Shown here: piece after piece, positions 20,207 through 50,824 of the stretch
Position numbering within the stretch: position 1 is the stretch's first letter
Layout of the letters: each line of letters begins with the position of its first letter
Virus record (IMG/VR): IMGVR_UViG_3300044957_001482
Coordinates: 1-64,000 of that record
DNA length: 64,000 nucleotides
DNA from: a virus
Taxonomy: Duplodnaviria; Caudoviricetes
Direction: 5' to 3' (one strand)
Notes under the pieces: model-generated
The model's database searches: none
Seen by the model: the letters and a program-made list of their open reading frames with translations, nothing else
What the model was told of the DNA's origin: nothing
Translations under genes and position numbers: made by a program

Positions 20207-20764
20207 ATGCACATTTATAAGATTACTAACAAGATCAATAACAAAGTGTACATTGGACAAACGGTTCAAAAAAATCCTAAGATAAGATGGTATGCCCATT
20301 GTGATTACATGCATAAAGGACGCAAAAGCTATCTTTATGATAGCGTGAGAAAATATGGCATCGAAAATTTTTTGTGGAAAGTGATAGATGCCGCCAACAA
20401 TATCAACAAGCTAAACGAAAAAGAACAGGCCTGGTTGGAACATTATCAAAAAATTGCTGTTGTTTATAACAATAGAGAAGCCGGTGGCAACAAATTACAT
20501 AACCCAAAAAGCATAGAAAAAATGCGAGAATCACAAAGAAAGGCTCATGCACGTCGGCGCGCGTTAGGTACCGATACCCGGACAAGACGAGATGGTGGTG
20601 CTATGAAGGGTAAAGCTCATACTGGAAGAGGAATAAAAGGACGATGGTCTATGCCAGATTGTGCTAAAGAAAAAATTAGACAAATCCAATTAGAACGCAG
20701 TGGTACTCGTGGTAAAACTTGGAAAATTGTAGATGGCAAAAGAATTTATATGGAAAAAGAATAA
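20207..20764 (+). mobile_element. Free-standing GIY-YIG (Seg-like) homing endonuclease gene
   Basis: HIYKITNKINNKVYIGQT...R...H...E...YN; AT-rich insert between gp14 and gp15. Confidence 0.85.
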
Positions 20765-22170
20765 TGGTATCTCAATTTTTCTACGACGAACAAATACGCA
20801 GATTTCTCCTTCAGTTCACTCGCATTGTCAGCAACTTTCAGGTCGAATATGGCAGAGATGAAGATGGCAATGCTGCTGCGTTGATACGTGTGCCTGTGCG
20901 CTACGGGGATGCCAGCCGCCAGGCCCAGACCATACTGCAGGAAAACAGCAAAAATTCCATGCCTGCTACGCCTATGATGACCTTTTACATCGCAGCACTG
21001 AACTATGATCGGCCGCGCATGCAAGAACCCTATCATGTAAGCAAGGTATCGGTAAGACAGCGGACCTACGATACCTCCACTGAAACCTACGAAACCACAC
21101 AAGGCAATGCATTTACCATAGAACGACTGATGCCGGTTCCGTATCAATTAACTATCAATCTTGACATCTGGACCTCCAACACCAATCAGAAACTACAACT
21201 GTTGGAACAGATGTTGACACTGTTCAATCCCAGTCTCGAAATCCAGAGCACAGACAACTTTATCGACTGGACCAGTCTTACTGTGCTGGAACTGGAATCG
21301 GTTAACTGGTCCAGTCGTGTGATTCCCGTAGGCACTGAAAATCCCATCGACATCGCAACCGTGAAATTCAACCTGCCGATCTGGTTGTCACCCCCGGCCA
21401 AGGTAAAAAAACTGGGCGTGGTAGAACGCATAATCATAAGCATGCATGATGCCCAGGGCGATCTAGCCGAGGCCGTGATCAACAATGATCTATTGTTGGG
21501 TACCAGAGTGGTTGTGACTCCGTTTAACTATGCGCTGGTAGTGCTTGGCAATCGAATACAATGTCTTGAGCAGCAGGATCTCAGCCGAGAGCCCGACAAC
21601 GACGCGTTGGTCGATCCTGAGCCACTGCTAACTTCAACCCTACAATGGCCTGCTGTGATCAACATGTATGGAACTCTGCGTCCAGGAATCAGCCAGATTC
21701 GACTGGAACAGCCCGATGGCACCGACGTGATTGGTACCATTGTGGTTGATCCCAACGATGATATCTTTGTGATCTACGACGTAGACATCGATACTATTCC
21801 GCAAAACACCTTGCCCCCAGTTGATGCTGTGGTTGATCCATTAATCAGCGGACCCGGCGACAGGCTGCCTCCCACACAACCTGGGCAAAGATATCTGCTT
21901 ACCGAAGCCACTGGAAATTTTGACAACCAAAGCAATCCCACAGCCTGGATCGGGCACAACGGACGGTCTTTGATCGCCGAAGCCAATGATATCATCGAGT
22001 ACGATGACGATTACGGTTACTGGCGTGTGCTGTTTCATGCTGCGCAGGAAACTGCCATACAATATATTACCAACATTACCAGTGGTATCCAGTATCGATG
22101 GACCGGGGAGATGTGGGTCAAAAGTTATCAAGGAACATATGTGGGGGGCAAATGGAGACTGGTGTTGTAA
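20764..22170 (+). CDS. Tail terminator/sheath stabiliser (gp15-like)
   Basis: FFYDEQIRRFLLQF, VPVRYG, PVPYQL, QLLEQMLTLFNP motifs. Confidence 0.8.
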   Translation: MVSQFFYDEQIRRFLLQFTRIVSNFQVEYGRDEDGNAAALIRVPVRYGDASRQAQTILQENSKNSMPATPMMTFYIAALNYDRPRMQEPYHVSKVSVRQRTYDTSTETYETTQGNAFTIERLMPVPYQLTINLDIWTSNTNQKLQLLEQMLTLFNPSLEIQSTDNFIDWTSLTVLELESVNWSSRVIPVGTENPIDIATVKFNLPIWLSPPAKVKKLGVVERIIISMHDAQGDLAEAVINNDLLLGTRVVVTPFNYALVVLGNRIQCLEQQDLSREPDNDALVDPEPLLTSTLQWPAVINMYGTLRPGISQIRLEQPDGTDVIGTIVVDPNDDIFVIYDVDIDTIPQNTLPPVDAVVDPLISGPGDRLPPTQPGQRYLLTEATGNFDNQSNPTAWIGHNGRSLIAEANDIIEYDDDYGYWRVLFHAAQETAIQYITNITSGIQYRWTGEMWVKSYQGTYVGGKWRLVL

Positions 22171-22571
22171 AGGCAGTGGGTGTATGGTTCAGGAGTGCTG
22201 CCACTGAGCGGTATCTCTACTTGCTAAGAAATGATTGTAAAAATCCCGGAACTTGGGGATTGCCCGGTGGAAAAATTGAGCCTGGGGAAACCCTGCTACA
22301 AGGCATGCAAAGAGAATGCAGCGAAGAATTGGGGCATTTTCCGACCTATCGTCGGTTGGTTCCATTGGAAAAGTTCACCACAGCCGACGGTAGATTTGAA
22401 TACAACACCTGGATCTGTGTGATCAAGGACGAGTTCCAACCGCGACTGAACACCGAGCACCTGGGATATGCCTGGATCGACCCAGGTCAATGGCCTCGGC
22501 CCATGCACCCTGGACTATGGAATACCGTGAACATAGAGTCTGTATTACAAAAACTCGACTCGGTGACCTAG
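22152..22571 (+). CDS. NUDIX hydrolase
   Basis: Nudix box GGKIEPGETLLQGMQRECSEELG. Confidence 0.9.
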   Translation: METGVVKAVGVWFRSAATERYLYLLRNDCKNPGTWGLPGGKIEPGETLLQGMQRECSEELGHFPTYRRLVPLEKFTTADGRFEYNTWICVIKDEFQPRLNTEHLGYAWIDPGQWPRPMHPGLWNTVNIESVLQKLDSVT

Positions 22572-22593: not shown

Positions 22594-25185
22594 TCACAGG
22601 CGGCCCACTATTATTTCGATAGTGCCGTGGATTCCATCGAAATCCTCGAGACTTTTGCCAATCACGGTACCAATCGCAGGTGCGGTGCAGGACTGTGCGC
22701 GGCCGTTACCAGCTGCTACCATCATGTCTCCTTTGCGTACTGGGCCAATCACATTGGTAGGAACGCGACCGGCCAATGCCAATGCTACTGGATATTGTGC
22801 CTGGATAGTTGTGTTCATGATATAGGCCGGATTGGCCGACACTACTCCGGCCACTCGTTGATCGTTGGCATGATTAGATAATGTTACTTCGTGGGTTCCG
22901 CCCATGGACAATACTGTGCCCGTTTCGTAGTGACTGTCTGCTGCATACATTTCGGCCAAGTCCGCGTATTGCGCAGACGTAGCCTTGGCAAACACTGTAT
23001 CGAAATACAACGAAGCACTGCCGATATTGCCTACTCCGTTGCCGTTGGCATTTACGATATTGCCAAGGGTAACTGTGCCAAGCCCGGCCGACAAGTTACC
23101 GCCTGACACATTGCCAGTGGCCGAAATCAGGCCTGCGGTTAGGACATTACCACCAACAATGTTACCGGTGGCCGTGGCCGTGGTTGTATTGATCGCACCG
23201 TTGCCGTCCAGTGTGAGACTGTTGCCTGTAGCATTGCCAATGTTGGGTGTGACTAGGTTGGCTCCAGATTTAACTACTACCACATCGGCCACGATGGCCG
23301 TGGTAGTGTTGTCAATATTAACACTGAATGTGGTGCCAGTCAGTGTCAGCCCATCGCCGGCTTGATAGGCCTTGCTGGCTGAAAATTGTGTGAACACCAG
23401 ATTGTTGTAGCCTATGATCAGTGGACCCACTGGTAAGGTCATCACATAGCTTTCGCCCTCGCCGGTGTCACCTTGTTGTACAAAAAAATAATCACCGGCG
23501 TCCAAGGCGTTGATGTCGTCTGGTGCATATGTATCTGTGTCGGAAGACCTGGTCATGACCCAGGCCACAGTGGCATTGCCCACGTTGCTCACTGTGTATA
23601 CACCATTGTGAGCAGCATTGGCCTGAGTATACACTAATACCCGATCGTTGGCTGCCAGTGTGATACCATCGATTATCAATGCAGCATTGTCCCCGGCATT
23701 GGTCAGGGTGGCACCGACACCTGAATTCACACGCACCGATTGAGTCATCCCCGACGCCGATGTGATATTGCTGACCGGCAAACCATTGTAGGTAGTGGTC
23801 AACACCGCTGCGCTGGTGTTGGGTGCGGACACCACGAAATAAGCGTTGTTGGCTGTGATACCTTGGAAAGAATTGGCAAACCACAACTGGTCGTTGACCT
23901 GCAGGTTGGCCGCGGTGCTGAACACCACGGTGTTGCCGTCTATGGTATCGGTCACCGTGAACACATTTCCCCCCGGTGCATACGTGGCAGTCAGAGCTGT
24001 GGGCGACTCCACACGAACCGGGGTGTGTATGATGATTCCGGTGGACACCGAATCGTCTACATATTGTTTGGTAGCTGCATCACTGCCTTGTATGGGAGAG
24101 TTTACATTGTTGATATAACTGGTGCCTAGATTTACATTGCCTGACAGCGCAAAGGTCACATTTGCTGCTGTCATGGTAAGGTTGCTGGACACAATGTTGC
24201 TGGAAATCAGGTTGCCACCAGTGACGTTACCGGTCACAGAAACTGCGGTTCCGGTATACGTGGTGGCATTGACCGTGTCCCCGACCAACACATTGCCTGC
24301 GGTGACATTGCCGGTTGCTGATATCTGATCAGCGGTATTGACGTTGCCAGCCACGACGTTGCCTGTGACTGTGGCCGTACCTGCCACAGTCAGAGTATTA
24401 CCGGCCGAGTCAAAGGTAAATGCACTTGATGCCGCTGCATTGTCCTGATTGTTGAAAATGATCTGTGTGTTGGATCCGGGCACTGTTAAATTTCCAGTGA
24501 TGTTGCCTGAAAAATTACCAACAAAGGTTCCTGCAGTAACGATATTACCAGTGGCAGTGATTGTTCCTGCAGTGATGAAATTGCCGCCAGTGACGTTGCC
24601 CAGTGCTGCTACTGAGTTAGCAAAGATACAACTGTCAATGGCATCCACGATCAAGCTGGAATCGTCAGCAAACACACTGCCAATCAGGTCACCACGGAAC
24701 TGCGTGGCAATTACATTGCCTTGAGAGGACACATTGCCCGATGTCAGCAGGTTGCCGCCAGTGACATCGCCTGTGGCCGAGATCTGATCAGCGGTACGCA
24801 CATTGCCTGCATCGATATTTCCGGTCACGCTGAGAGTGGGTATCACGCCAAGATCCGTGGCTACCACCCCGATCAACTGACTGCCGTTGCCTAGAAAGTA
24901 GTTGCCTGCAATGTTGCCAGACACCGACAGCGTCGATGACGAAAACACCGCTACGTTGCTGGTTCCGTCCACTGACACCGCGACATTGCCGCCCGGAACA
25001 GGTATTTCCACGCTGGAATTACCATAAAAAATACGATCAGCATTGATATTACCAACCAATGTGGCATTGCCCTGCACTGTTAGATCGCCGGTGATCACAG
25101 TGTTGACAGCGTCCACAGTGACTGTGTCCGTGTGATTTAGAGTTTTGATAGTATAATTGCCATTGATGCGCTTGAAAGTGGCCAT
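22594..25185 (-). CDS. Tail fibre with C-terminal autoproteolytic chaperone-like domain
   Basis: GNVTGGN repeats, DAATKQYVD, AQYADLAEMY...VALAGRVP...KGDMM C-terminus. Confidence 0.75.
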   Translation of the reverse strand: MATFKRINGNYTIKTLNHTDTVTVDAVNTVITGDLTVQGNATLVGNINADRIFYGNSSVEIPVPGGNVAVSVDGTSNVAVFSSSTLSVSGNIAGNYFLGNGSQLIGVVATDLGVIPTLSVTGNIDAGNVRTADQISATGDVTGGNLLTSGNVSSQGNVIATQFRGDLIGSVFADDSSLIVDAIDSCIFANSVAALGNVTGGNFITAGTITATGNIVTAGTFVGNFSGNITGNLTVPGSNTQIIFNNQDNAAASSAFTFDSAGNTLTVAGTATVTGNVVAGNVNTADQISATGNVTAGNVLVGDTVNATTYTGTAVSVTGNVTGGNLISSNIVSSNLTMTAANVTFALSGNVNLGTSYINNVNSPIQGSDAATKQYVDDSVSTGIIIHTPVRVESPTALTATYAPGGNVFTVTDTIDGNTVVFSTAANLQVNDQLWFANSFQGITANNAYFVVSAPNTSAAVLTTTYNGLPVSNITSASGMTQSVRVNSGVGATLTNAGDNAALIIDGITLAANDRVLVYTQANAAHNGVYTVSNVGNATVAWVMTRSSDTDTYAPDDINALDAGDYFFVQQGDTGEGESYVMTLPVGPLIIGYNNLVFTQFSASKAYQAGDGLTLTGTTFSVNIDNTTTAIVADVVVVKSGANLVTPNIGNATGNSLTLDGNGAINTTTATATGNIVGGNVLTAGLISATGNVSGGNLSAGLGTVTLGNIVNANGNGVGNIGSASLYFDTVFAKATSAQYADLAEMYAADSHYETGTVLSMGGTHEVTLSNHANDQRVAGVVSANPAYIMNTTIQAQYPVALALAGRVPTNVIGPVRKGDMMVAAGNGRAQSCTAPAIGTVIGKSLEDFDGIHGTIEIIVGRL

Positions 25186-25773
25186 TTATAGATCCTTTAG
25201 ATTATTTATACGGTCTAAAAATTCCGTTATTGGCATGACACAGTGATTGTGATGTGTTTGGAATTCCGCAACAGGAGCAGTGGTATCTCCGGCTACTCTG
25301 ACAAAACTCACTCGCTGAAAGGTTTTCATTATCTGACAGATTTGCCGGACCCAGTTACCAGTAAAGGTGGGACTGGCCGAGCTTTTTTTATAAAATTCTG
25401 TGTCAACATAGACATTGTTGAATTTGCCCAAGGCATCTGGACCAAGGTCAAATCCCAGGAGATACAGCACACAATGGCCGTCCAGTGCGGCCTGTGCCAT
25501 TGCGATTGGCCCTGAACTGAATCCATAGTATTCTTGAGGTACCGGCAAAGCCCCCCATTGAGCCATGGGCTTGCGGGTATACATGCGATTTTTAAGCGCA
25601 TATCCTTCCTGCTGTATGCGCTCACTGATAGGTCGATCTGTGCTGATCAATGTGTCAGGAACAAATTCCCTATAGAGAGCATTGCATCCATAGATAGGCC
25701 CGCGAAGTTTTAATTCGTGGAGATTCACTGCTAGACGACTGCGTCCATTACCTAACACAAATGCTGCGGGCAT
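25186..25773 (-). CDS. DUF115/MAF-like nucleotide-sugar-related protein
   Basis: FVLGNGRSR, YGCNALYR, SSGPIA, YLLGFDL motifs. Confidence 0.55.
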   Translation of the reverse strand: MPAAFVLGNGRSRLAVNLHELKLRGPIYGCNALYREFVPDTLISTDRPISERIQQEGYALKNRMYTRKPMAQWGALPVPQEYYGFSSGPIAMAQAALDGHCVLYLLGFDLGPDALGKFNNVYVDTEFYKKSSASPTFTGNWVRQICQIMKTFQRVSFVRVAGDTTAPVAEFQTHHNHCVMPITEFLDRINNLKDL

Positions 25774-25805
25774 AAAAAGTCCTTCCAGTATGTATCTGGA
25801 AGGAC
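25774..25805 (-). terminator. Hairpin plus U-tract that also covers the RBS of the downstream gene
   Basis: GUCCUUCCAG-7nt-CUGGAAGGAC followed by UUUUU then AUG. Confidence 0.6.
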
Positions 25806-25822
25806 CGGATATCACAACACTT

Positions 25823-26572
25823 TTATGAGGTGACGTTGTCTACTATGGCCAGTTCCACAGCGGTTTGCGGTGTGCCTGACTTGATCACTGTGCCTTCGTC
25901 GGTGAAGAAGTTGGCCGCATAGCGTTGATTATTGACCACACTGGTAGCAGCATAATCACTGCCGCCGGCCCAGTTCAACAACCACTTGTTGGTTAATTTG
26001 CTGATGGTAGTGGCCGTGGAGTCGCCCAGGGTATAGGTAATGGCCATCAATCCTGCAGCAGGTGTGGTATCGTCATCCAGCACGCAGACTCCCACTAGGT
26101 TACAGGTACCATTGCCGTTGTTGGAACCTTCTGCAGTGGCTGTAAACACTGTGCCCACTGCATAGCCAGCTGGTGCGCCAAACAGTGTCCAGTCAGTGCT
26201 GCCCACTGTGGCAATGATGTAGGAATTTCCAGTCACGATGCCTTCGTCCTGGACGGTAGTGGTTGATCCTACCAGGTACTTGTGGGCACCTTTTTGGCGG
26301 ATGATGTAACCAGTGGCCACACCTTGACCCGATCCTGATGTCAGCTGTATGTTGACAATCACTCTCACTCGAGGAAATGTGGTGCTGGGGGTATCTGTGG
26401 GGTTGGCTCCACCAACCACACCCAGAAACTGTGTGCTGTTGAGGGTGTCAGCGGTGTTGTAGACCGGATTGGTCAGGCTTCCAAAGTTAGGAAAGCCAAG
26501 ATCCACACCGACTGACTCTCCGCTGTTGCCCGAGCCGGTGGAAAGTTTTTGAATTTTGAGAGGACGTCCCAT
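25823..26572 (-). CDS. Virion structural protein (MGRPLK N-terminus)
   Basis: Strong SD AAGGAG; GYIIRQKGAHKYLV motif; Thr/Gly-rich. Confidence 0.6.
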   Translation of the reverse strand: MGRPLKIQKLSTGSGNSGESVGVDLGFPNFGSLTNPVYNTADTLNSTQFLGVVGGANPTDTPSTTFPRVRVIVNIQLTSGSGQGVATGYIIRQKGAHKYLVGSTTTVQDEGIVTGNSYIIATVGSTDWTLFGAPAGYAVGTVFTATAEGSNNGNGTCNLVGVCVLDDDTTPAAGLMAITYTLGDSTATTISKLTNKWLLNWAGGSDYAATSVVNNQRYAANFFTDEGTVIKSGTPQTAVELAIVDNVTS

Positions 26573-26578
26573 TTGTTT

Positions 26579-26662
26579 TCTCCTTTAAAGAAGTCCGATG
26601 TGGGTTCTAGCCACTACGCGGTGGTTTCCGCATAAAACGCCGTTTGCGTTGACAAGTATTTA
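26579..26662 (-). promoter_or_regulatory. TAAATA late promoter plus four-hairpin 5' leader
   Basis: Stems AACGC/GCGUU, UAUGCGG/CCGCGUA, GUGG/CCAC, CUUCU/AGGAG. Confidence 0.5.
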
Positions 26663-26706
26663 CCAATAATCTACAATCAATTATCTAGCGTGAGTAAATA
26701 TCTTCC

Positions 26707-27855
26707 ATGCAAACCCAAGAACTCATTGTAATCGGCAATCAACACAGAGAACAGCGTCAGTACGAGCAGGCACTGACCTGTTATGCACAGGCCTTTGCAC
26801 AGGATCGCAGATCAGCTGCGGCCTTTAACAACTACGGCAACGTGCTGCGAGAAATAGGGGAGCCAGGATCAGCCGTACCTTTTTTACAGCAGGCTCTGAC
26901 GCTGGAACCCAACAATGTCACTGCACAGTTCAATCTGGCTGTCACTCATCTTCTCATGGGCAATCTGCGCCAGGGATGGCCGGCCTACGAGGCCCGATGG
27001 AACTACGAACATCTAGCCGGAACCGAACCCAAGTTTGCACAGCCGCGATGGCGTGGTGAAGACCTCCAGGGCAAGACTGTGCTAATCGTAGGCGAGCAAG
27101 GCCACGGAGACAACATACAGTTTTCTCGTTTTGCCTACAATCTGCATGTCATGGGTGCACGAATAAAATTGCAGGTCACCGCGGGCCTGGTGCCCATGTT
27201 CCAAGGCAGTGCTGTGGTTGCCTGGGCTGGTACCTACACCGATGACCCGGGCGAGTTTGATGTTTGGGTGCCTGTCATGAGCATTCCCGGAATATTGGGT
27301 GTGACCTACGACAATCTGCCGCGGCCAGTCAGTTACATGTCTGCGGACCGTGAGTTGACCCAGAGATGGCAGGAGCGCCTGGGACCAAAAACTCGCATGC
27401 GTGTGGGTTTTTCCTGGTCCGGCCGTAGAGATTCCTGGCTGAACCAGCACAAGGGCATGCCTTTCCGAGTCATGCTAGATCTAATTGAGAAAAATCCTCA
27501 GTATGAGTGGACCAATCTACAGATCGACGCCACCGAAGAGGAAAGTGCTGCTCTGGCTGCAGCCGGTGTGAAACTGTATCCCGGTACCATACGCGGATTC
27601 CACGACACCGCTGCCTTGATCGCTCATCAAGATGTCATACTCAGTGTGGACACTGCGATCGCACACCTCGGTGGTGCGTTGGGTCGTCCCACCTGGGTGA
27701 TGTTGCAAAAGTTTGGAGTGGACTGGCGCTGGCTGTTGGATCGCGATGATTCGCCGTGGTATTCCGCCGCGAGACTGTTTCGGCAATCGGCATTTGATGA
27801 CTGGGCGTCAGTGACCAATCGGGTGCATCAGTACCTGTCGTGGTTCAAGATCTAG
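26707..27855 (+). CDS. TPR-repeat plus glycosyltransferase family 9-like protein
   Basis: N-terminal TPRs; EQGHGDNIQF, DVILSVDTAIAHLGGALGRP, DWRW...SPWY motifs. Confidence 0.85.
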   Translation: MQTQELIVIGNQHREQRQYEQALTCYAQAFAQDRRSAAAFNNYGNVLREIGEPGSAVPFLQQALTLEPNNVTAQFNLAVTHLLMGNLRQGWPAYEARWNYEHLAGTEPKFAQPRWRGEDLQGKTVLIVGEQGHGDNIQFSRFAYNLHVMGARIKLQVTAGLVPMFQGSAVVAWAGTYTDDPGEFDVWVPVMSIPGILGVTYDNLPRPVSYMSADRELTQRWQERLGPKTRMRVGFSWSGRRDSWLNQHKGMPFRVMLDLIEKNPQYEWTNLQIDATEEESAALAAAGVKLYPGTIRGFHDTAALIAHQDVILSVDTAIAHLGGALGRPTWVMLQKFGVDWRWLLDRDDSPWYSAARLFRQSAFDDWASVTNRVHQYLSWFKI

Positions 27856-28302
27856 TTACCGGCACCAGCTCTGTTTGGTTTCGCCGTGGTACTCACGCGC
27901 CAGCCCTTGTTCGATTAGCATGGCACGCAGGCTGCGACCGTCCAACATGATGTCGCCCAGCACGCGTCCACCAAACTTGTCCCAACCATAGAGTACCACT
28001 CGTCGCTCCGTGCTCTGGGCCACGGCCTGTGTGGTAAACTTGGTAGCCAGTTGCCCACGTTGATCTTCGCTTGGGCACTGCGCACGGTGGCCTTTTTCCG
28101 GAGTGTCCACTCCGTAGATGCGAACTGCGAGTTCTGGCTTGAGTGGTGCTGGCAGGAATGGTGCTGAGATAATGATGGTATCGCCGTCAATCACACGCAG
28201 GACCTGTGCGTCATTTGTGGCTGAATTTTTGGGCTGCTTCTGCGCATAGGCTGAGCCCATCATTGCGAATACTGTAAACACTGTTGCTAAGATTGTTTTC
28301 AT
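27856..28302 (-). CDS. Thermonuclease (SNase-like) with signal peptide
   Basis: RVIDGDT, VRIYGVDTPE, DKFGGRVLG, GLA motifs. Confidence 0.88.
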   Translation of the reverse strand: MKTILATVFTVFAMMGSAYAQKQPKNSATNDAQVLRVIDGDTIIISAPFLPAPLKPELAVRIYGVDTPEKGHRAQCPSEDQRGQLATKFTTQAVAQSTERRVVLYGWDKFGGRVLGDIMLDGRSLRAMLIEQGLAREYHGETKQSWCR

Positions 28303-28445
28303 TTTGATTCCGTCTGGTTTGTGGGTTCTTCCCAGCCCAGTTTATATAACAAGTCACTGTTGGTACCGGTATAGGACACTGCCAGGGTCAAGGTGATGTT
28401 GCGCAGATATCAAGGGGTTACTTCAGTAGGTTTGGGTTTGACCAT
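28299..28445 (-). pseudogene. Probable remnant of a phage gene with in-frame TGA
   Basis: MVKPKPTEVTP*YLRNITLTLAVSY...LLYKLGWEE; internal TGA at 28410-28412; ATGA overlap with the SNase gene. Confidence 0.35.
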
Positions 28446-28703
28446 GCGTTATCTCGGTGTTCTACGAAATTATTTATGAATTTTTGCAGACTCGCCCAGC
28501 TGATCGGTCAGGTCAAGCACACAAACACCTGTCCCGATTGCCGGTAGTAAGCCGCGCCAATGCCAATACCGGCCGCGTCGCCCATCTCGTCCGTTCTCGG
28601 CAGTTACCGTGCCTCTATGGATCGCCCCGATGGCAAACTGAGCATCGCCCACCGGACTTACTTGTTTTTCTCACATCGGGAGGCGCCAACCGGCAGGAGC
28701 GGC

Positions 28704-29072
28704 TTACTCGAACGACTTGACCTTGGTCGGAAATGCGCCGTCAGATCGACCCTTGAGGTAAGAGTAGAGCGCATCGATTTTTTCGGCACCGAGCGCGTCG
28801 TGCGGGGGCATGCCCCTTTCCGGCCGGCCTTTGGCGATCGTGGTCATCACCTCGTCCTTGGTCATCTTTTTGAGCGAATCAATCAGGGCTGGACCGACCA
28901 GGCCCTCCTGGTTGGCACCGTGGCAACGCTCGCAGGCCGCCGAGCGCCACGTTTGGAAACCCTTGAAGGTCTTGCTATCGACCAGCCCGTCCTTGACCGT
29001 GTAGGGGGCATCGTCGGCCAGGACCGGAGCGGCAAAGCCCAACAGCAGGGCAGTCAGAACAACGCGCTTCAT
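28704..29072 (-). CDS. Exported monoheme c-type cytochrome
   Basis: Sec signal (MKRVVLTALLLGFAAPVLA), CERCH heme motif, GMP axial Met; SD AAGGAG; GC-rich. Confidence 0.9.
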   Translation of the reverse strand: MKRVVLTALLLGFAAPVLADDAPYTVKDGLVDSKTFKGFQTWRSAACERCHGANQEGLVGPALIDSLKKMTKDEVMTTIAKGRPERGMPPHDALGAEKIDALYSYLKGRSDGAFPTKVKSFE

Positions 29073-29196
29073 CTAAACATCTCCTTCTTGACAATTTGGG
29101 TCGCTGAACAACATCGGAAGTTTAGATTGTGTCGGCACCCTTGTATACAACGCTGTCACTCAGAACCCGTTTAGCGGGCCACTGCCAAATTTACCA

Positions 29197-29334
29197 CTAT
29201 TCTCCGGGTCGAGCATTACCGTTGTAGTTGGCAATGGTTTCCCGCGCATTGTCTTTCATCACAGCGCGGCTGATACCAGTGATGTTGTCGTAGGGTGGTT
29301 TGGTGCCACCAAACCACCTTTCCTTATACTTCAT
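29197..29334 (-). pseudogene. Probable disrupted phage gene remnant
   Basis: 45-aa ORF with PPYDNITGISRAVMKDNARETIANYNGNARPGE; 5' end built from a palindrome and tandem repeat. Confidence 0.3.
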
Positions 29335-29351
29335 CTTTCCTTATACTTCAT
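29294..29351. repeat. 12-bp perfect inverted repeat plus 17-bp tandem direct repeat
   Basis: GGTGGTTTGGTG-C-CACCAAACCACC, then (CTTTCCTTATACTTCAT)x2. Confidence 0.9.
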
Positions 29352-29364
29352 ACAGCAATACCTA

Positions 29365-30567
29365 CTATCTATATTTATATTTTGTCGCCTCTTCACTACC
29401 ACCTGTGGCATTACCTTTGGAGTAACTGTGGGCGCCAACACCGGCCAACACACCATCTTTGACCACTAAGTACTCATTGCGAATAGGGCGGTGTTCAAAA
29501 TAACATTCCAATACTTCTCGCACACCTGCCGCATAACGAGTCTGAGCACTCAAACTGGTTCCAGAAATATGTGGAGTCATGCCATGATTTGGCATAGTGC
29601 GCCATGGATGGTTTTGGGGTGCTGGTTGTGGAAACCAGACATCTCCTGCGTATCCTGCTAAATGACCACTTTCTAAAGCTCGGGCGATCGCATCACGATC
29701 ACAGATTTTACCTCGGGCAGTATTGACAATGTAACTGCCTCGTTTCATTTTTGCTATCATTTCTTCATCGAACAAGTGTTCTGTTTCTGGATGCAACGGA
29801 CAATTGATCGTAACAATGTCGACTGCCTCGACCAGACTTTCTACACTATCATGCCAGGTCAAGCTCAATTCTTGTTCTACCCGTGTCGGCAAACGATGAC
29901 GATCAAAATAATGTAAATGCACATCAAATGCTTTTAATAACTTCAATGCTCTTAATCCAATACGACCTGCGGCAACAGTGCCCACATGCATACCTTCAAT
30001 ATCATAGCTTTTGACAACACAATCTGCGATATTCCATCCGCCCTCGATGACTTGTTTGTAACTAGGAATATAATTACGCACTAAACTCAACATCTGCATT
30101 ACAATATGTTCAGCTACCGAATTACTATTACAGTAGGTGATTTCTGCCACTGTGATGCCACGCTCCATCGCAGCTTGTAGATCTACGTGATCGGATCCAA
30201 TACCTGCTGTAAGAGCCATTTTAAGTTTTGGCGCACTAGCGATCCGTTCGGCAGTTAAATATGCCGGCCAAAAAGGTTGGCTGATTACTATTTCTGCATC
30301 TGGCAAATGTCGATCAAATTCTGAATCTGCACCGTCTTTGTCTGATGTGACAACCAACTCATGTCCCATACTTTCTAAAAATTTTCTTAGACCCAATTCG
30401 CCAGTTACGCTGCCTAATAATGTGCCAGCCTGAAAATCCACTTGATGTGGATTAGGAACTGTTTGTCCATCTGGATAATGCGTTATTCTAGGAATATTAT
30501 TTCTTGCATAGCTGGTTGGATAGCCGTTTACAGGATCATCATATAAAACACAAAGCACTTTTGACAT
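29365..30567 (-). CDS. fdh: NAD-dependent formate dehydrogenase (EC 1.17.1.9)
   Basis: KVLCVLYDDP, ISQPFWPAY, AGIGSDH, SVAEH, AAGRIG, DRH, NTARG (Arg), WFPQP (Gln), TPHISGT (His); Pseudomonas sp. 101-type FDH. Confidence 0.96.
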   Translation of the reverse strand: MSKVLCVLYDDPVNGYPTSYARNNIPRITHYPDGQTVPNPHQVDFQAGTLLGSVTGELGLRKFLESMGHELVVTSDKDGADSEFDRHLPDAEIVISQPFWPAYLTAERIASAPKLKMALTAGIGSDHVDLQAAMERGITVAEITYCNSNSVAEHIVMQMLSLVRNYIPSYKQVIEGGWNIADCVVKSYDIEGMHVGTVAAGRIGLRALKLLKAFDVHLHYFDRHRLPTRVEQELSLTWHDSVESLVEAVDIVTINCPLHPETEHLFDEEMIAKMKRGSYIVNTARGKICDRDAIARALESGHLAGYAGDVWFPQPAPQNHPWRTMPNHGMTPHISGTSLSAQTRYAAGVREVLECYFEHRPIRNEYLVVKDGVLAGVGAHSYSKGNATGGSEEATKYKYR

Positions 30568-30611
30568 ATAAATTTCTCTCCTAGGTATATGTAATATATC
30601 TGCTGCCCAAA

Positions 30612-30654
30612 TAAGACTTTATCTCTTGCGAGATGCGCTTTCACACAGGTCTCA
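30612..30654 (-). promoter_or_regulatory. Candidate cis-regulatory RNA (three-way junction) in the fdh leader
   Basis: P1 UGAGAC/GUCUUA; P2 GUGU-GAAA-GCGC; P3 AUCUC-GCAA-GAGAU. Confidence 0.45.
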
Positions 30655-30659
30655 AGTAT

Positions 30660-30688
30660 ATTTTACATTATTTGTTAACAGGATGCAA
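30660..30688 (-). promoter_or_regulatory. Sigma70-type promoter for fdh
   Basis: TTGCAT-17 nt-TAAAAT on the minus strand. Confidence 0.55.
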
Positions 30689-30689
30689 A

Positions 30690-31008
30690 TTAAACTGAAA
30701 AACTACTGCCACATCCGCATGTTGTTTTTTTCATTTGAATTTGAACTTGAACTAACAAATTGTGAGCCTTGTAGTTTATCTGTTTTGTAATCTATAGTTG
30801 CTCTATCAAAATACTGCATACTTAATGAATCTACTAGTAATTTATTGATAATAAAATCATCTTCATTCTTTTCATCTTCAATGGTAAATACATGGTTAAA
30901 TCCTGCACACCCGCCGCCAGAAATAAATGCTCTTACATATCTTGTGGTGGGTTCATCAAGTAAAATTTCTTTAATTTTTTTCTGTGCATCTTGGATTATT
31001 GTTAACAT
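30690..31008 (-). pseudogene. iscA: A-type Fe-S carrier IscA/ErpA (HesB), frameshifted before CGCG
   Basis: GGGCAG, LLVDSLSMQY, GSQFV; KTTCGCGSSFSV* lies in another frame after an A7 run (30725-30731). Confidence 0.8.
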
Positions 31009-31017
31009 ATTTAGTTC

Positions 31018-31329
31018 CTAACTACAAACACATTTTAAATGATAGTCTTTGACTGCTGCCTTAATTGTATCTTCGGCAAGAATACTGCAATGTATTTTTA
31101 CAGGCGGCAATGATAACTCTTCCGCAATGTGAGTATTCTTTATGCTGACAGCTTCATTGAGTGTTTTACCTTTAATTCATCTGATTACAAGACTTGAACT
31201 GGCAATAGCACTACTGCAGCTGTAAGTCTTGAATTTTGTATCTTCAATAATACCTTGATCGTTAACTTTAATTTGTAGTTTCATTACATCGCCGCAGGCA
31301 GGTGCACCTACCATACCTGTTCCTACAGT
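31018..31329 (-). pseudogene. iscU: Fe-S scaffold IscU, 5'-truncated with in-frame stop
   Basis: VGTGMVGAPACGDVMKLQIKV...LPPVKIHCSILAED; TGA at 31177-31179; YGCGSA motif reads YSCSSA. Confidence 0.85.
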
Positions 31330-31342
31330 TATTTTACCCAAC

Positions 31343-31368
31343 AAAAAAGCACCCGAAGGTGCTTTTTT
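31343..31368 (-). terminator. Rho-independent terminator after the major capsid gene
   Basis: AAAAAAGCACC-UUCG-GGUGCUUUUUU with C(UUCG)G loop. Confidence 0.9.
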
Positions 31369-31394
31369 GATACTTCGTAAAACTGATTTTTTGA

Positions 31395-32591
31395 TCAGCT
31401 GAACGAGAGATTGCTCACTGCGATTTCTCCCACATAGTCGCCAGCATTGCCGAACGACGAAGCAGTGTTGGTCAGTTCGATGTAGCCATAGCGAGTCATG
31501 AAGCTCACGACCGGTTCAAACGTGGTTGGATCCAGCACAACACCCGAGCTCATCAGCGGGATGTACGGGCAGTAGAACGCAGGAGCGTCTGCTTCCGACG
31601 AACCCTTGTAGCCGACCAGAACCGGAGTGGTGTCTGCGGCATACGAGTCAACGAACACACGCATAGCGCCATTGAGCGTACCAACGAACTTGGTGTTAGT
31701 CGGGGCTTCAAAGACGCCTTCGGTGGTGCGAGCAAAGGCCGAGGTTGTAGCCGATTGCAGCACGGTGAGAGCAGCACTTGAAACCACTGCATAGTTACCA
31801 GCACCGCGACGTGTGCGCTGAGCGATCAAGTTGGCAACACGGTTGATCAACACAGCCAGAGCAGCATGTTCGTCGCCAACGAATGTGGCAGTGCCCGAAA
31901 CAGTGGCTTGGTTGTAAGTGAACTCGGTGCTGGCCAGGCTGCGCAGACTCAAGAGGATTTCTTGGTCGATTTCAGCGGTGATTTCTTGGGCCAGAGCAGC
32001 CATGATTTCGGCTTCAACGTCGATGCCGTGCATGGCTTGAGCATCTTGGGCCGATTCAAATGTCCAACGTGCCTGCAGTTTGCGAGTTTTGGCTTCAACT
32101 GCTTGCTTGAGGATTTGAACCGAAATCTGCTTACCACCAGTGCCTTCCATGGTCGCTGTGTTGCCACCGGTATAGGCAGTGGCAGTGCTCACGTCCTTGG
32201 GCACTGTTGAGTATGCCGTGGCAATGGTGAACGGGCTCAGTGCTTCCTGGCCTGCTGTTACCGAAGTGGCAGCAGCCGACGAGTCAGTTAACGATTGAGC
32301 ATAACGCACACGCAGAGTATGTATCTGACCAACCGGGCCGGTCATGGGCTGCACACCAACCAATTCATTGGCGATCACAGTGGGCATGACCCGACGGATC
32401 ACTGGCAGGATCACACGATTGAGTGTGGCGATGTTGCCAGAAGCGGTTGAACCAGACGAGGCATTTTCTTTGAGGTACTTGCGAGTATTCTCAAGGATAA
32501 CCTTCATGCTGTTGCGCCGGGTTCCGTTCAGACCTTCAAGAAGGGCCTCTTTGGTCTCTTCCCACCGGCTTTCTAATAATTCTTGTGACAT
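31395..32591 (-). CDS. Major capsid protein (gp23-like)
   Basis: VGVQPMTGPVG, AKTRKLQARWTFE, EITAEIDQE, FYCPYIPL, FMTRYG. Confidence 0.96.
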   Translation of the reverse strand: MSQELLESRWEETKEALLEGLNGTRRNSMKVILENTRKYLKENASSGSTASGNIATLNRVILPVIRRVMPTVIANELVGVQPMTGPVGQIHTLRVRYAQSLTDSSAAATSVTAGQEALSPFTIATAYSTVPKDVSTATAYTGGNTATMEGTGGKQISVQILKQAVEAKTRKLQARWTFESAQDAQAMHGIDVEAEIMAALAQEITAEIDQEILLSLRSLASTEFTYNQATVSGTATFVGDEHAALAVLINRVANLIAQRTRRGAGNYAVVSSAALTVLQSATTSAFARTTEGVFEAPTNTKFVGTLNGAMRVFVDSYAADTTPVLVGYKGSSEADAPAFYCPYIPLMSSGVVLDPTTFEPVVSFMTRYGYIELTNTASSFGNAGDYVGEIAVSNLSFS

Positions 32592-32614
32592 TTAAGTCTC
32601 CTGTTTTTAAAAAA

Positions 32615-33709
32615 TTAAAGCCCGGCCAGACGTTTGAGATCGATAACGTTGCTGGCTGCATTGCTATCTTCGGGCTGGATCGGAACTTCCTTATCACCAG
32701 TCACTGCTGTGATAGATTCTGTGATCACCCGACTAGCTTTCGCAGAACGATCTTCCAACACTGCTGGTAGATACTTTTCAAACGCGCTCTTCAAACGTGA
32801 AGTTTGCACGCTTTCTAGCAAATTACGCATGACTTCGGCTTTTTCACGGTTGAGCGGAGCCAGTAACTCGGCCATGAGATCACGGCGTTCGTTGTGTTCG
32901 CTTATCATGCGTATTTCGCGGTCTTTTGACTCAACAAGGACTTTGGCCTTCTCGCTGAGTTCGATGGCTTCTGCCAATCTGCGATTCTTGTCCGACAGCA
33001 GCGAGTTCAGGCGGCGCACTTCTGCATTCTCATTGAGGTGAGTGGCACCGAATTCTGCTGCGTATGCTTCAAAAATCCTACGTCCAAAGTTGTTCTCGCG
33101 AGCAACACGGATGTCTTCTTGCAGTTGGGTCAGTTCGGCCGTGAGATGACGGCTGACTGCTTGGCTCATCTTTTTAGCACTTTCCTTGACGAAACGTGCC
33201 TTGAGATCCTGCAACTTGCCGCGTGCTTCGCGTATCAAGCGAACCTTGGTTTCGACTACATCACGCTTGTCGGCAGCAAATTCTTGTATCTCACGAGCCA
33301 ATGCATGTACCACGAAGTTTTCCAGCTTCTGGACACCTTCGGTGTGCATGCGGCGGTCTTGGCGCAGTTCGGTGATTTCTTCGGCCAATTTTTTCACTAG
33401 GAAGTCATTGAACTTGGTCGCCGACTCCATCATCTTGGTTTGGAAACGCACACGGTCTTGGGCCAGCGCACGACGTTCGTCGGCGACGGCTTGTACTTCT
33501 GCTTGCAGACCTTCAGTAACCATACGATCTAGGGCTTCAACCATCACTGTCTTGTCATGCTCGTAGCGTTGTGCGAATTCCTCACGGAGCTCGCTGCGTA
33601 CCTGTTCACGGGTCTCGTTGAGCTTGGATTCCCAGGCCTCATTGATTTCCCGACCGATTTCTTCGGTGATCAGGTTACTGTCAAGCAATGGTTTAATAGC
33701 ATCAAACAT
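32615..33709 (-). CDS. Prohead core scaffold (gp22-like)
   Basis: Coiled coil, FGRRIFEAY motif; lies between protease and capsid genes. Confidence 0.8.
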   Translation of the reverse strand: MFDAIKPLLDSNLITEEIGREINEAWESKLNETREQVRSELREEFAQRYEHDKTVMVEALDRMVTEGLQAEVQAVADERRALAQDRVRFQTKMMESATKFNDFLVKKLAEEITELRQDRRMHTEGVQKLENFVVHALAREIQEFAADKRDVVETKVRLIREARGKLQDLKARFVKESAKKMSQAVSRHLTAELTQLQEDIRVARENNFGRRIFEAYAAEFGATHLNENAEVRRLNSLLSDKNRRLAEAIELSEKAKVLVESKDREIRMISEHNERRDLMAELLAPLNREKAEVMRNLLESVQTSRLKSAFEKYLPAVLEDRSAKASRVITESITAVTGDKEVPIQPEDSNAASNVIDLKRLAGL

Positions 33710-33721
33710 GCCTGCTTCTCC

Positions 33722-34366
33722 TTAGATTTTGAGATCTCTGATGAGGCGCTTTAGTTCCTCGGCCAGATATCTCCGTACCTTGTCGCCCTCACCTGCTTCC
33801 TGTGCCATCTCAAGTATGCGATGTCCGTGTCTCATGTTGATGAGACCTTCGTAGATCGCTTGAGGATAGGCATTGGGAGCACTGGGTTGTGCGACCACAT
33901 CTATAGTGACTATTTCAAAGTCACTTACATGTCCTGTTCTATCGTCAACGTTGCCCGACCCGCGGCTGCTAACACCAAGTTTTACCCCTGACTGCAACAG
34001 TGTGCGTATCAGTTCACCCATGGGTGTGGGCAGTATCTTGAGTTTGCCACAACCGGCATTGCCGTCCATCCACATGCCTTCTACCGAGTGACACACACGA
34101 TCTAGGTTGATCTTGAGGTCATCAGGGTGATCCACTTCGCCCAGCACCGAGTTGCCATCGCGTATCTGTTCATTGATGGTTTCTACAGCCTTGAGTATTT
34201 CGTGGCGCGGGTAGATGCGTTCGTTGGCGTTGCGCTTGTCACCTTCGATACAGATGCCCTTGAGATAAAGGTTTTTTCCGCCTTTACCCGTGGCATCATC
34301 TTCGGTGATTACCTCGATCCGGGCCTGGTTAAAGGTTAGATCTTCTCTGAGGTATCGTGCGCTCAT
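33722..34366 (-). CDS. Prohead protease (gp21-like)
   Basis: NANERIYP, LGEVDHP, LGVSSRGSG, DVVAQPSAP. Confidence 0.93.
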   Translation of the reverse strand: MSARYLREDLTFNQARIEVITEDDATGKGGKNLYLKGICIEGDKRNANERIYPRHEILKAVETINEQIRDGNSVLGEVDHPDDLKINLDRVCHSVEGMWMDGNAGCGKLKILPTPMGELIRTLLQSGVKLGVSSRGSGNVDDRTGHVSDFEIVTIDVVAQPSAPNAYPQAIYEGLINMRHGHRILEMAQEAGEGDKVRRYLAEELKRLIRDLKI

Positions 34367-49306: not shown

Positions 49307-50824
49307 TTATACTTGATATCCCATTGCAGATGCAATTTCTCGATGAGTATCGGCAAACGTTTCATGTCTTCGTTGGTCAAGCATTGACATGTATTCCACG
49401 AATTCCTGACCGTTGCTACCGGCACTGGCTGATATTCTTTTTGCCAAATTTGAAAGTTCTTTGATATTGTGATTTTTATACTTGGAAACCACCAATTCCT
49501 TTGCTAAATCGGTCATGTAATCGACACAAAGATATGTTGGCTGGTCTAGATAGTTAAGAGTGATATTTAGATCTTGTTCGCTGGCCCAAAAAAACAATGA
49601 CTCGAGATACAAAACATTCTGTATGTTAACTGTTGGCATTATGTAAATGCGTAGTTGGCTGTCGGCCCAACTTTTTAACTTGTTGATATTGTCTTGTATT
49701 TCTTTCCAAGATCCGCCACGTTGCAATTCAAATCTTTGGTTGGTGTCATCGATGCTGACAGCTATGTCTACCGATTGAAATTTTTTTAACAATGGCATGA
49801 ATTTTTCTGGATAAACAGAACCATTGGTATTGATGTGTAGACGTATGTGATCACTGTCTCCGGACTGGATAGCCAGTTCTAAAAACAAATATATGTTTTT
49901 GAGCAACAACGGCTCGCCACCGTAAAAATCGATATTGATAAGGTTGGGCAACAGATTGATCAGTTGTTCGAGAAAATCTTTGTTGTGGTCAAACCATCTG
50001 CCCTGGTACAGTAAAGACAAAATTTCAGTTTTATCATCGTGTGCGGAGTATCTCAACTTTTCAACAGCGATACTCGAGCTGGAGGCCGGGGAACATATCC
50101 TGCATTTGAAATTGCAAATATTACCGGCCTTGATGTCAATGGATTGCAGCGTTGGATTGTCAATGAGCTCACTCAACAAATGTTGTCGATACAGACTCAA
50201 ATGATTTTGTCGATTGCTGGTCAGCCCATTTTTTTCAAGATTCCAGCAATGACTGCATCCAACCGGCTGCTTGCCGTCAGACAATTCTCGACGCAGAGCG
50301 GTAAGGCTGGTGCCGTGAAATATATTTTGCATGGTATCCGTGGATACCGAACCAATTTTGCCTTGATAAACACAACACGGTGCATAATGTCCGGTATTGC
50401 TAACAGCCAGGTGCATCCAGGGCATGGGGCAAAGGGTCTGTTCGTTGATCAAAAAATTGTCAGGCAATATTTTACCGGAATCTATGTCGTGAATTTCACA
50501 AACAATGGGCGACGAATCTGCATCACCGTATACTCGGTGGCTGAGATCAAACAGATGCTGAGTTGGCTCGCCGCAAAAAATCAATATAAAAAAATTGCTG
50601 ATATCTACAAGTTTGGCTGCCCGTTGTATATGATCGGCCAATTGCTGGCTTGGCGCATGTTGACAATAAAAAACAATACGTTCATTGTGTTGATACTCAA
50701 ATCGATGCAGGCTTGTTAATTTTCTATAGATAGACCCGGTGGACTGATTGATTGTAGACAGATCGATCGACTCGATGACCAAATATCTCGTTCCGATGTA
50801 ATCCGATACTCCTCTATTCATCAT
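49307..50824 (-). CDS. Radical SAM protein with SPASM/twitch domain, AT-rich
   Basis: CPMPW...PCC...CSHC; CNFKCRIC; FYGGEP. Confidence 0.85.
   Translation of the reverse strand: MMNRGVSDYIGTRYLVIESIDLSTINQSTGSIYRKLTSLHRFEYQHNERIVFYCQHAPSQQLADHIQRAAKLVDISNFFILIFCGEPTQHLFDLSHRVYGDADSSPIVCEIHDIDSGKILPDNFLINEQTLCPMPWMHLAVSNTGHYAPCCVYQGKIGSVSTDTMQNIFHGTSLTALRRELSDGKQPVGCSHCWNLEKNGLTSNRQNHLSLYRQHLLSELIDNPTLQSIDIKAGNICNFKCRICSPASSSSIAVEKLRYSAHDDKTEILSLLYQGRWFDHNKDFLEQLINLLPNLINIDFYGGEPLLLKNIYLFLELAIQSGDSDHIRLHINTNGSVYPEKFMPLLKKFQSVDIAVSIDDTNQRFELQRGGSWKEIQDNINKLKSWADSQLRIYIMPTVNIQNVLYLESLFFWASEQDLNITLNYLDQPTYLCVDYMTDLAKELVVSKYKNHNIKELSNLAKRISASAGSNGQEFVEYMSMLDQRRHETFADTHREIASAMGYQV

Follow-up and report, generated by a model that had tools for sequence, protein, structure and literature searches.

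Why should a large phage carry a complete formate dehydrogenase among the genes for its virion? The question is raised by IMG/VR virus record IMGVR_UViG_3300044957_001482 (Duplodnaviria; Caudoviricetes), a 98,178-bp sequence rated 28% complete, whose first 64 kb (positions 1 to 64,000) were analysed here and are referred to as the window. At 29365..30567 its minus strand encodes an NAD-dependent formate dehydrogenase (FDH) of 400 amino acids (aa), located 0.8 kb from the gene for a Gp23-family major capsid protein (MCP). On the strength of sequence comparisons, the gene probably specifies a functional phage enzyme and represents an auxiliary metabolic gene (AMG) that arrived on a mobile cassette and was kept by selection.

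As an enzyme, the window gene product is by all sequence criteria an ordinary bacterial-type NAD-FDH, and is predicted to be active. The open reading frame (ORF) starts with ATG and contains no internal stop codons, and the protein scores 693.1 bits against the NCBIfam equivalog model NF005750 'NAD-dependent formate dehydrogenase' (cutoff 329), with positions 1-385 of the 386 in the model covered; all paralogous families score it under their own cutoffs, the runner-up being PGDH with 171 bits versus 454. Pfam recognizes 2-Hacid_dh_C (171 bits) and 2-Hacid_dh (62 bits), and the two-domain architecture of D-2-hydroxyacid dehydrogenases is present, with PF02826 (residues 156-335) nested within PF00389 (62-364). 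The top PDB matches are bacterial NAD-FDHs, namely 2gsd (728.5 bits over query residues 1-398), 3fn4, 2go1 and 2nac/2nad. Like the enzymes of Moraxella sp. C2 (2gsd/3fn4) and Pseudomonas sp. 101 (2nac/2nad) and those of the Mycobacterium type (2go1/2gug), the window FDH comprises about 400 aa, with the N-terminal loop and the C-terminal tail; it aligns with the solved structures without gaps over residues 1-398 (728.5 and 682 bits), and all catalytic and NAD-binding residues are identical. Unlike them, it is encoded by a phage, has a G+C content at third codon positions (GC3) of 0.32 and belongs to a freshwater environmental clade.

In PseFDH numbering, which equals the numbering of the window protein minus 1, Asp221 is the acidic residue that selects NAD+ over NADP+, the (A/G)xGxxG motif is the dinucleotide fingerprint, and Gln313, Ile122 and Pro97-Phe98 have functional roles. 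Asn146, Arg284 and His332 are described as formate-binding or catalytic and Asp125 as ribose-binding (PMC13440586). The window protein has the same motifs as 2gsd, including AAGRIG (199-204), D222-R-H, N-T-A-R285-G, P-Q314-P and T-P-H333, and the same residues P98-F99, I123, D126 and N147; when 17 FDHs of the phage, of viral contigs and of named bacteria are aligned, none of the 12 positions checked varies. An earlier sequence-only reading of this DNA, which claimed an intact, full-length, metal-free NAD-dependent enzyme of 400 aa with the AAGRIG motif, the Asp of DRH, the Arg of NTARG, the Gln of PQP and the His of TPH, is thus borne out by the ORF, NF005750 and the PDB alignment. The gene is preceded by a strong Shine-Dalgarno sequence (AGGAGA, about 9 nt 5' of the ATG), is co-oriented with the late virion genes and lies downstream of a hairpin and T-run that trail gp23.

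The nearer contig end is 29 kb away from the FDH gene, which has viral hallmark genes on both sides. On one side, the MCP gene (31395..32591, minus strand; PF07068 323 bits, phrog_138 334 bits, 66% identity to the MCP of phage PA5oct) is followed by a scaffold-like gene, a prohead protease and a gp20-type portal (MCP, protease and portal together at 31.4-37.3 kb), while on the other side a tail sheath, a sheath-stabiliser-like gene and a virion structural protein occupy 10.7-22.2 kb, with a baseplate hub further on. The virion families detected are PF07068, phrog_213, phrog_207 and the sheath family phrog_10581. By MCP, the nearest cultured phages are the PA5oct-like Pseudomonas jumbo phages (Arenbergviridae; 66%), then other jumbo phages of 350-470 kb; the completeness of the record implies a genome of about 350 kb. 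The label 'T4-like phage' given in the sequence-only reading is therefore appropriate for the virion (Gp23-type MCP, gp20-type portal, protease, contractile tail genes), but not for the phage as a whole, because its nearest relatives are PA5oct-like and not Straboviridae: it has a T4-type virion module without membership in the T4 family. PA5oct and the window have in common the order baseplate hub, portal, protease, scaffold-like gene, MCP. Their synteny stops right after the MCP and returns at the NUDIX and sheath-stabiliser genes (22098-22571 and 20719-22170), which places the FDH in a variable island of about 9 kb between conserved virion modules. This island (22594..31394) holds an 863-aa protein, two unknown ORFs, a freshwater-2 RNA, TPR-GT9, SNase, a cytochrome c and the FDH cassette. 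In PA5oct (L261:10307-11884) a Hef-like homing endonuclease follows the MCP, where the window holds the FDH cassette, which suggests a recombination hot spot common to the group.

The cassette itself is a low-GC IscU-IscA-FDH unit (29346..31329, minus strand), 94.3% identical at the nucleotide level over 1,985 bp (blastn) to L001, an 8.9-kb viral contig with a GC content of 0.366 that carries PhoH. The similarity ends at both cassette edges. The L001 copies are intact: IscU comprises 128 aa (PF01592, 186 bits), IscA 103 aa ending in CGCGSSFSV, and the FDH is 98% identical to that of the window. The window cassette has a GC content of 0.393 and GC3 of 0.293, compared with GC3 of 0.52-0.58 in the core genes of the phage, which points to a recent import from a low-GC source. 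The two genes that accompany the FDH are damaged. The IscA/ErpA-like gene (30703..31008, minus strand; PF01521 28.5 bits; 75 bits with the ErpA model, under its cutoff of 117) is frameshifted by a 7-nt insertion that moves the C-terminal CGCGSSFSV out of frame. The IscU remnant (31010..31344, minus strand), compared with the intact L001 copy, has lost its first 25 or so codons, has TGA in place of a Trp codon (31177-31179, TCA on the plus strand) and reads SCSS instead of GCGS, i.e. two Gly-to-Ser changes flanking the cluster-binding Cys.

Upstream, between the cassette and gp23, a terminator-like hairpin with a T-run (AGCACC-TTCG-GGTGCT, then TTTTTT; 31343..31367, minus strand) directly follows gp23, and the cassette junction lies just below it; the consensus scan did not list this hairpin. 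The spacer between IscA and FDH, i.e. the FDH leader (30568..30702, minus strand), contains the AGGAGA and a sigma-70-like TTTGCA-18-TAAAAT (30689 to 30660), and differs from L001 at 7 positions in 122 nt. With respect to a structured leader or riboswitch, no Rfam family was matched at the FDH, the sole Rfam match in the window being the freshwater-2 motif elsewhere. At the downstream junction, a four-way alignment of the window with L001, L078 (99% identical FDH, partial) and the more distant L007 reveals a 17-nt tandem duplication (ATGAAGTATAAGGAAAG x2; 29318..29351, minus strand), past which a perfect hairpin (29293-29317) lies in unrelated sequence. In L001, L078 and L007 a permuted transfer-messenger RNA (tmRNA) lies about 30 nt past the FDH stop codon. 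These tmRNAs were found by ARAGORN with plausible ...ALAA tags, and score 94.9, 93.3 and 136.8 bits, respectively, with RF01850 beta_tmRNA (gathering score 84), in addition to matching RF04321; by their coordinates (L001:8153-8632, L078:494-848, L007:8963-9335), they begin inside the final FDH codons or immediately past them. A search for a tmRNA remnant in the window found none at E<=1, and neither tRNA nor tmRNA genes were found anywhere in the 98-kb record. FDH and tmRNA seem to move as a pair; the window lost its tmRNA at the junction with the 17-nt duplication.

How has the FDH fared while its neighbours decayed? Compared with L001, it exhibits non-synonymous (dN) and synonymous (dS) divergence of 0.017 and 0.20, respectively, i.e. 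dN/dS of 0.083, versus 0.20 for the IscU remnant and 0.51 for IscA. The ratio of non-synonymously to synonymously changed codons is 8:44 in FDH, 9:9 plus a stop in IscU and 11:5 plus a frameshift in IscA, and the difference between FDH (8:44) and IscU and IscA together (20:14) is significant (Fisher p=4.4e-5). Five of the eight amino acid differences in FDH are derived in the window, and all five are conservative and found at variable positions. Other pairs of viral FDHs with unsaturated dS give dN/dS of 0.040 (L004-L005) and 0.035 (L006-L007). The FDH thus appears to have been maintained by purifying selection while IscU and IscA decayed, although selection on the window branch cannot be separated out by a pairwise comparison. 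In any case, the value near 1 that the sequence-only reading regarded as fatal to its interpretation was not observed.

The window FDH is not a solitary case. Among the deposited phage genomes (50,697 records) FDH at >=60% identity was found in none, which means that no cultured phage is known with such an enzyme. In IMG/VR, where the sequence-only reading recommended a search for viral FDH homologs flanked by virion genes, such homologs do exist: 91 pattern matches led to 83 confirmed FDH stretches and 80 loci kept, of which 19 are situated in a T4-type packaging/tail module. A tree of 275 sequences, including 75 IMG/VR loci (5 partial loci were left out), places the viral FDHs in three groups. 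The freshwater group (63 tips, support 98) comprises the window, L001-L009, two Actinomycetota contigs from metagenome-assembled genomes (MAGs) and 51 unnamed proteins. Another group consists of 13 loci near a Pelagibacteraceae genome and includes L010, whose 196.6-kb record is Gp23-positive and has a Pelagibacter-like FDH. The third group, with 53 marine loci, forms a clade of its own (support 100) with no named genomes inside. A Gp23 gene is present in 2 of the 50 FDH-bearing IMG/VR records searched (of the 80 loci), one of them being the record of the window.

Marine T4-type contigs such as L059 encode the same enzyme family (68% identity to the window FDH), also within a virion/packaging block, in the order gp13/14/15-like connectors, TerS (small terminase), FDH, a 182-aa ORF, TerL (large terminase), sheath, tube and portal. 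They differ from the window by their own clade, a fixed TerS-FDH-orf182-TerL site, smaller low-GC phages and the lack of linkage to Fe-S or tmRNA genes. Flanking genes of the L059 type were found in 17 of the 53 marine loci and 2 of the 5 partial ones, the remaining 36 of the 53 being in other contexts. As a cargo site, the position of the FDH and the conserved 182-aa ORF (no PHROG family) between terminase genes, in L059:3116-6904 and 18 further loci, is unusual.

Closer to the window are five records, G001-G005 (42-84 kb, 11-22% fragments), in which no Gp23, TerL (phrog_2), portal (phrog_213) or capsid of nucleocytoplasmic large DNA viruses was detected (0/5 each); their phage nature is suggested by genes shared with the window record, tRNA/tmRNA islands and PHROG hits. 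G004 has about 30 genes syntenic with the window record (41-85% identity, including a protein of about 4,900 aa), G005 shares several genes with it at 34-67%, and G001-G003 share a paralogous family at 25-31%. The FDH alleles of G004 and G005 (L006, L009) come from related jumbo phages, are 84-85% identical to that of the window and fall within the same broad freshwater clade. They differ from it in their genomic position, next to tRNA arrays, tmRNA and Hsp70: in G004 (L006:6226-15165) an array of 27 tRNA genes lies about 600 nt past the FDH, and in the G005 group the genes past the FDH are those for tmRNA, an alpha/beta-hydrolase and Hsp70. They also differ phylogenetically, as in a maximum-likelihood tree of 77 sequences the window and L001 (support 100) fall inside a 26-tip clade (97), apart from the G004/G005 alleles (99). 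The separate subclade and locus imply more than one gain or replacement of FDH in this phage lineage, and the window copy is, judging from its sequence and position, a separate acquisition or replacement relative to the G004/G005 alleles. Full-length Hsp70/DnaK genes (867 bits) near FDH in jumbo-phage records are located at L007:10058-11938 and L002:12379-14280, and are accompanied by genes for RimK-type ATP-grasp proteins, a glycosyltransferase and an amidoligase.

The sole named genomes in the freshwater clade of the window FDH are the two Actinomycetota MAGs, which are small (1.3 and 0.9 Mb). Their contigs (L082:6001-7200, L083:267-1466) look bacterial and are syntenic with each other, while the FDH, 86% identical to that of the window, is nested in a phage-rich clade. 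Vertical origin in Actinomycetota was considered and rejected, as FDH was not found in 150 of the 151 sampled genomes of the order, the sole match being one of these MAGs itself (G050); hence, it is not an old actinobacterial trait. These copies may reflect phage-to-cell transfer or a binning issue. Outside the freshwater clade, the next named relatives (76-78%) are Methylocystis, Methylococcales, Paracoccus, Phyllobacterium and Methylobacter.

Could the association of FDH with a phage be an artefact, i.e. a chimeric contig or an FDH region of the host or another phage joined by the assembler? The island is a compositional mosaic, and its FDH cassette and cytochrome segment are each common to other lake genomes, creating branch points in the assembly graph. 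On the other hand, positions 28000-33000 are almost wholly contained in four lake-water metagenome runs and partly in 14 more (none of the runs listed is on record as RNA, which bears on expression neither way), and Logan contigs from four runs were aligned to 26000-34000, among them X4, a lake metagenome not flagged as a possible source of the record. In X4, a 3,803-nt contig (depth 35.8) crosses the IscU remnant, the upstream junction, the hairpin and gp23 (31120-34000), a junction-specific contig covers 29156-29393 (depth 32.5), a 12.9-kb contig covers 26000-28620 (depth 38.7), and 29156-31149 is covered by contigs chained on 30-nt overlaps, in each case with 0 differences; the junction contigs are at the phage's own depth, the island flanks being at 33-39. 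X1 gives the same picture, with junction contigs free of differences. Independent contigs also reproduce the TGA in IscU and, with 0 gaps, the 7-nt insertion in IscA, so both are real features of the phage population. A variant contig (depth 10.2) has 19 differences in IscU, including T>C at 31177, which restores TGG, and in X4 there are loose ends at 29335, leading into a tRNA-like arm, and at 30689 and 31317-31329, leading into other sequence; several cassette contexts co-exist in the same lakes. Moreover, the virion genes on both sides of the island are in the PA5oct order, and the relatives G004 and G005 also have FDH. A chimeric assembly is therefore unlikely, the cassette, the gp23 junction and the downstream junction all being reproduced without differences in an independent lake assembly, and the misassembly of which the sequence-only reading warned can be regarded as very improbable.

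A genuine phage gene may still be a neutral passenger that hitch-hiked with a module selected for its tmRNA or Fe-S genes, its low dN/dS being inherited from earlier carriers. This would agree with the recent, unameliorated state of the cassette (GC3 0.29-0.32), with the tight linkage of FDH to tmRNA or tRNA arrays in other carriers, and with the fact that selection cannot be assigned to one branch from a pairwise dN/dS. However, over the same time in which the neighbours gained a stop, a truncation, a frameshift and a 20:14 ratio, the three-times-longer FDH gained no such lesion and displays 8:44; the supposed real cargo (tmRNA, IscU and IscA) is exactly what the window lost, and FDH was fixed independently, at different loci, in at least three viral FDH clades. 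A mere passenger thus seems unlikely. Somewhat less likely still is an active enzyme whose benefit lies elsewhere than in energy, i.e. in detoxification or buffering of formate, or in local supply of CO2 or NADH, for instance for reductive activation of radical-SAM/Fe-S enzymes. The coupling of FDH to Fe-S assembly genes in L001, L004 and L005 and the two radical-SAM proteins encoded by the phage, one with a SPASM domain, speak for such a role, but the Fe-S genes are dispensable in the window phage, because its IscU and IscA decayed, a scan of 34 further window ORFs revealed no other formate-producing or formate-consuming enzyme, and the marine-clade FDH resides between terminase genes without Fe-S genes.

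The explanation that we prefer, a functional FDH that reached the phage on a mobile cassette and was kept there by selection, has to reckon with several observations that weigh against it. The composition of the cassette marks it as a recent arrival, so that any long-term retention in the window phage is putative, and part of the purifying selection against L001 may predate the transfer or lie on the L001 branch. The sigma-70-like site (9/12 matches) is at chance level, with 8 such sites found versus 6.1 expected from shuffles. The FDH unitig has a depth of 52.9, above the 33-39 of the phage flanks, since other carriers share the FDH segment, and for the same reason the linkage through it is based on depth arithmetic and 30-nt overlaps instead of a single spanning contig. 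The record represents 28% of the phage genome. Finally, just two deposited phage records cover >=80% of the query, both being unannotated Staphylococcus 'phage' entries with 46-47% identity.

With regard to expression, activity, formate source and fitness benefit, we infer the following scenario. A low-GC IscU-IscA-FDH(-tmRNA) module of about 2 kb would circulate among freshwater phages of betaproteobacteria and would have been inserted into the recombination hot spot that immediately follows the capsid gene of a jumbo myophage. Selection would then have kept FDH alone, while IscU and IscA degenerated and the tmRNA disappeared at the junction. In the infected cell, the enzyme would be made from its own ribosome-binding site, possibly also from its own promoter, and would form the usual homodimer, in which the oxidation of formate to CO2 is coupled to the formation of NADH from NAD+. 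This additional NADH could feed respiration, and thus ATP synthesis, as well as the reductive biosynthesis required for a very large virion and genome, with simultaneous removal of formate; possible sources of the latter are C1/tetrahydrofolate-linked oxidation in the host, housekeeping reactions and the surrounding lake water. A supply of reducing power or an adjustment of the formate pool during infection, as proposed in the sequence-only reading, is plausible.

Formate, a central C1 intermediate, is an inexpensive source of NADH in oligotrophic waters. Were FDH a routine component of phage genomes, infected cells would divert C1 carbon away from assimilation towards CO2 and energy. This would add a virus-driven term to the C1 and CO2 fluxes of aquatic systems, and FDH would form a new class of energy AMGs beside the photosynthesis, respiration and Fe-S genes. 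The window offers an unusually clean natural experiment, with three genes on one cassette, two of them decayed and FDH kept, and its locus provides a handle on the movement of cargo modules between jumbo phages (the post-capsid hot spot, the tmRNA/tRNA islands). Metal-free FDHs are also the workhorse enzymes of NADH regeneration, and the diverse viral clade is a potential enzyme resource.

In the portions of the literature that were searched, FDH is absent from discussions of AMGs save for one sentence on pelagimyophages, the T4-like phages of SAR11 (PMC7029224), and no paper joins 'NAD-dependent formate dehydrogenase' with viral AMGs; other mentions of formate dehydrogenase in the phage or AMG context include an Fdn-N beta-subunit-like protein and a mobile genetic element of methanogens. 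In the sentence in question, FDH is listed among the genes unique to a deep pelagimyophage ecotype and read by the authors as energy-related (PMC7029224). The two cases are alike in that a formate dehydrogenase appears in a T4-type myophage as an energy-related auxiliary gene. The pelagimyophage gene is marine and SAR11-associated, and the text cites there the structure of the Mo/Se enzyme FdhH, leaving the enzyme type unstated (PMC7029224); in contrast, the window FDH comes from a freshwater PA5oct-like jumbo phage and belongs to a different FDH clade. In pelagiphage-infected SAR11, tetrahydrofolate-oxidation genes of the host, including fdhD, are reported to be up-regulated (PMC12753301), and the role proposed here for FDH would fit both the C1/tetrahydrofolate oxidation switched on in these cells and the energy-related reading of the pelagimyophage gene. 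The remark in the sequence-only reading that FDH is not a recognized phage AMG is therefore correct as to the literature searched, where it is nearly absent, but not as to the viral sequences, with 83 stretches in IMG/VR and 19 of 80 loci in a T4-type module. The window FDH is a freshwater, jumbo-phage, independently acquired case of a barely described kind of AMG, neither unique nor unprecedented, but one in which the internal evidence of selection is uncommonly good. A wider generalization is conceivable, and we advance it tentatively, with slightly less than even confidence: NAD-FDH may be a widespread and hardly characterised energy AMG of T4-type and jumbo myophages, acquired convergently in at least three viral lineages, with the freshwater FDH and two-piece tmRNA, with or without IscU/IscA, forming a module swapped among jumbo phages of betaproteobacteria that taps the formate/C1 pool for NADH, and from whose viral pool Actinomycetota may have received their allele.

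Hints at the host are provided by the neighbouring high-GC segment with a gene for a periplasmic c-type cytochrome (28570..29185, minus strand; ORF 28704-29072), assigned by its depth and GC3 of 0.764 to a recent host-derived insert. These 615 bp match a more abundant genome of the same lakes at about 99.5% identity, with a depth of 87 versus 33-39 for the phage in X4 and 21-30 versus 2-4 in X5/X6, where the contigs with this segment run on into unlike sequence on both sides. The excess depth and the unlike flanks indicate a very recent copy from the more abundant genome, which looks like a host-to-phage transfer and a possible handle on the host. An exact 40-nt search of metagenome contigs for the segment gave 0 matches, and the donor genome with about 99.5% identity was not recovered. 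At the protein level, the cytochrome is 74% identical to that of a Betaproteobacteria MAG and 54-65% to those of Methyloversatilis and Burkholderiales. The closest long contig, L162 (82%), comes from a flagellated bacterium and encodes a sensor kinase that shares 81% identity with the one in a Rhodocyclaceae MAG; in L162, the neighbours of the cytochrome are a RisS/RisA-type two-component system, a transporter and PPK2. The tmRNAs that adjoin FDH in the sister contigs represent the two-piece type of betaproteobacteria, so that two independent hints point to Betaproteobacteria, and the host is probably an uncultured Rhodocyclaceae-like betaproteobacterium, not a shown methylotroph. A methanol-linked cytochrome was considered and rejected, with scores of 43 and 22 bits versus family cut-offs of 162 and 148, respectively, and no methanol dehydrogenase adjoins the cytochrome in L162; the framing of FDH as the last step of methanol oxidation, suggested in the sequence-only reading, consequently found no support.

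Several further features of the phage are worth recording. The two radical-SAM proteins among the 34 scanned ORFs, one of which has the SPASM Fe-S domain, are encoded at 49307-50824 (minus strand) and at one other place; as possible clients of IscU/IscA in relatives, they may account for the carriage of Fe-S assembly genes by phages of this sort. A 1,229-aa ORF is followed by an ORF of about 4,911 aa (window 60443-64000 and on; record 64132-78867), conserved at 58-81% identity in G004, and the product of the latter is a giant virion-associated or unknown protein. The freshwater-2 RNA motif (26570-26651, minus strand; 79 bits versus a gathering score of 49.9 in Rfam) lies directly 5' of an unknown 249-aa ORF (25823-26572); it is an orphan motif that may be phage-borne, and a 1-nt insertion variant at 26571 is present in run X1.

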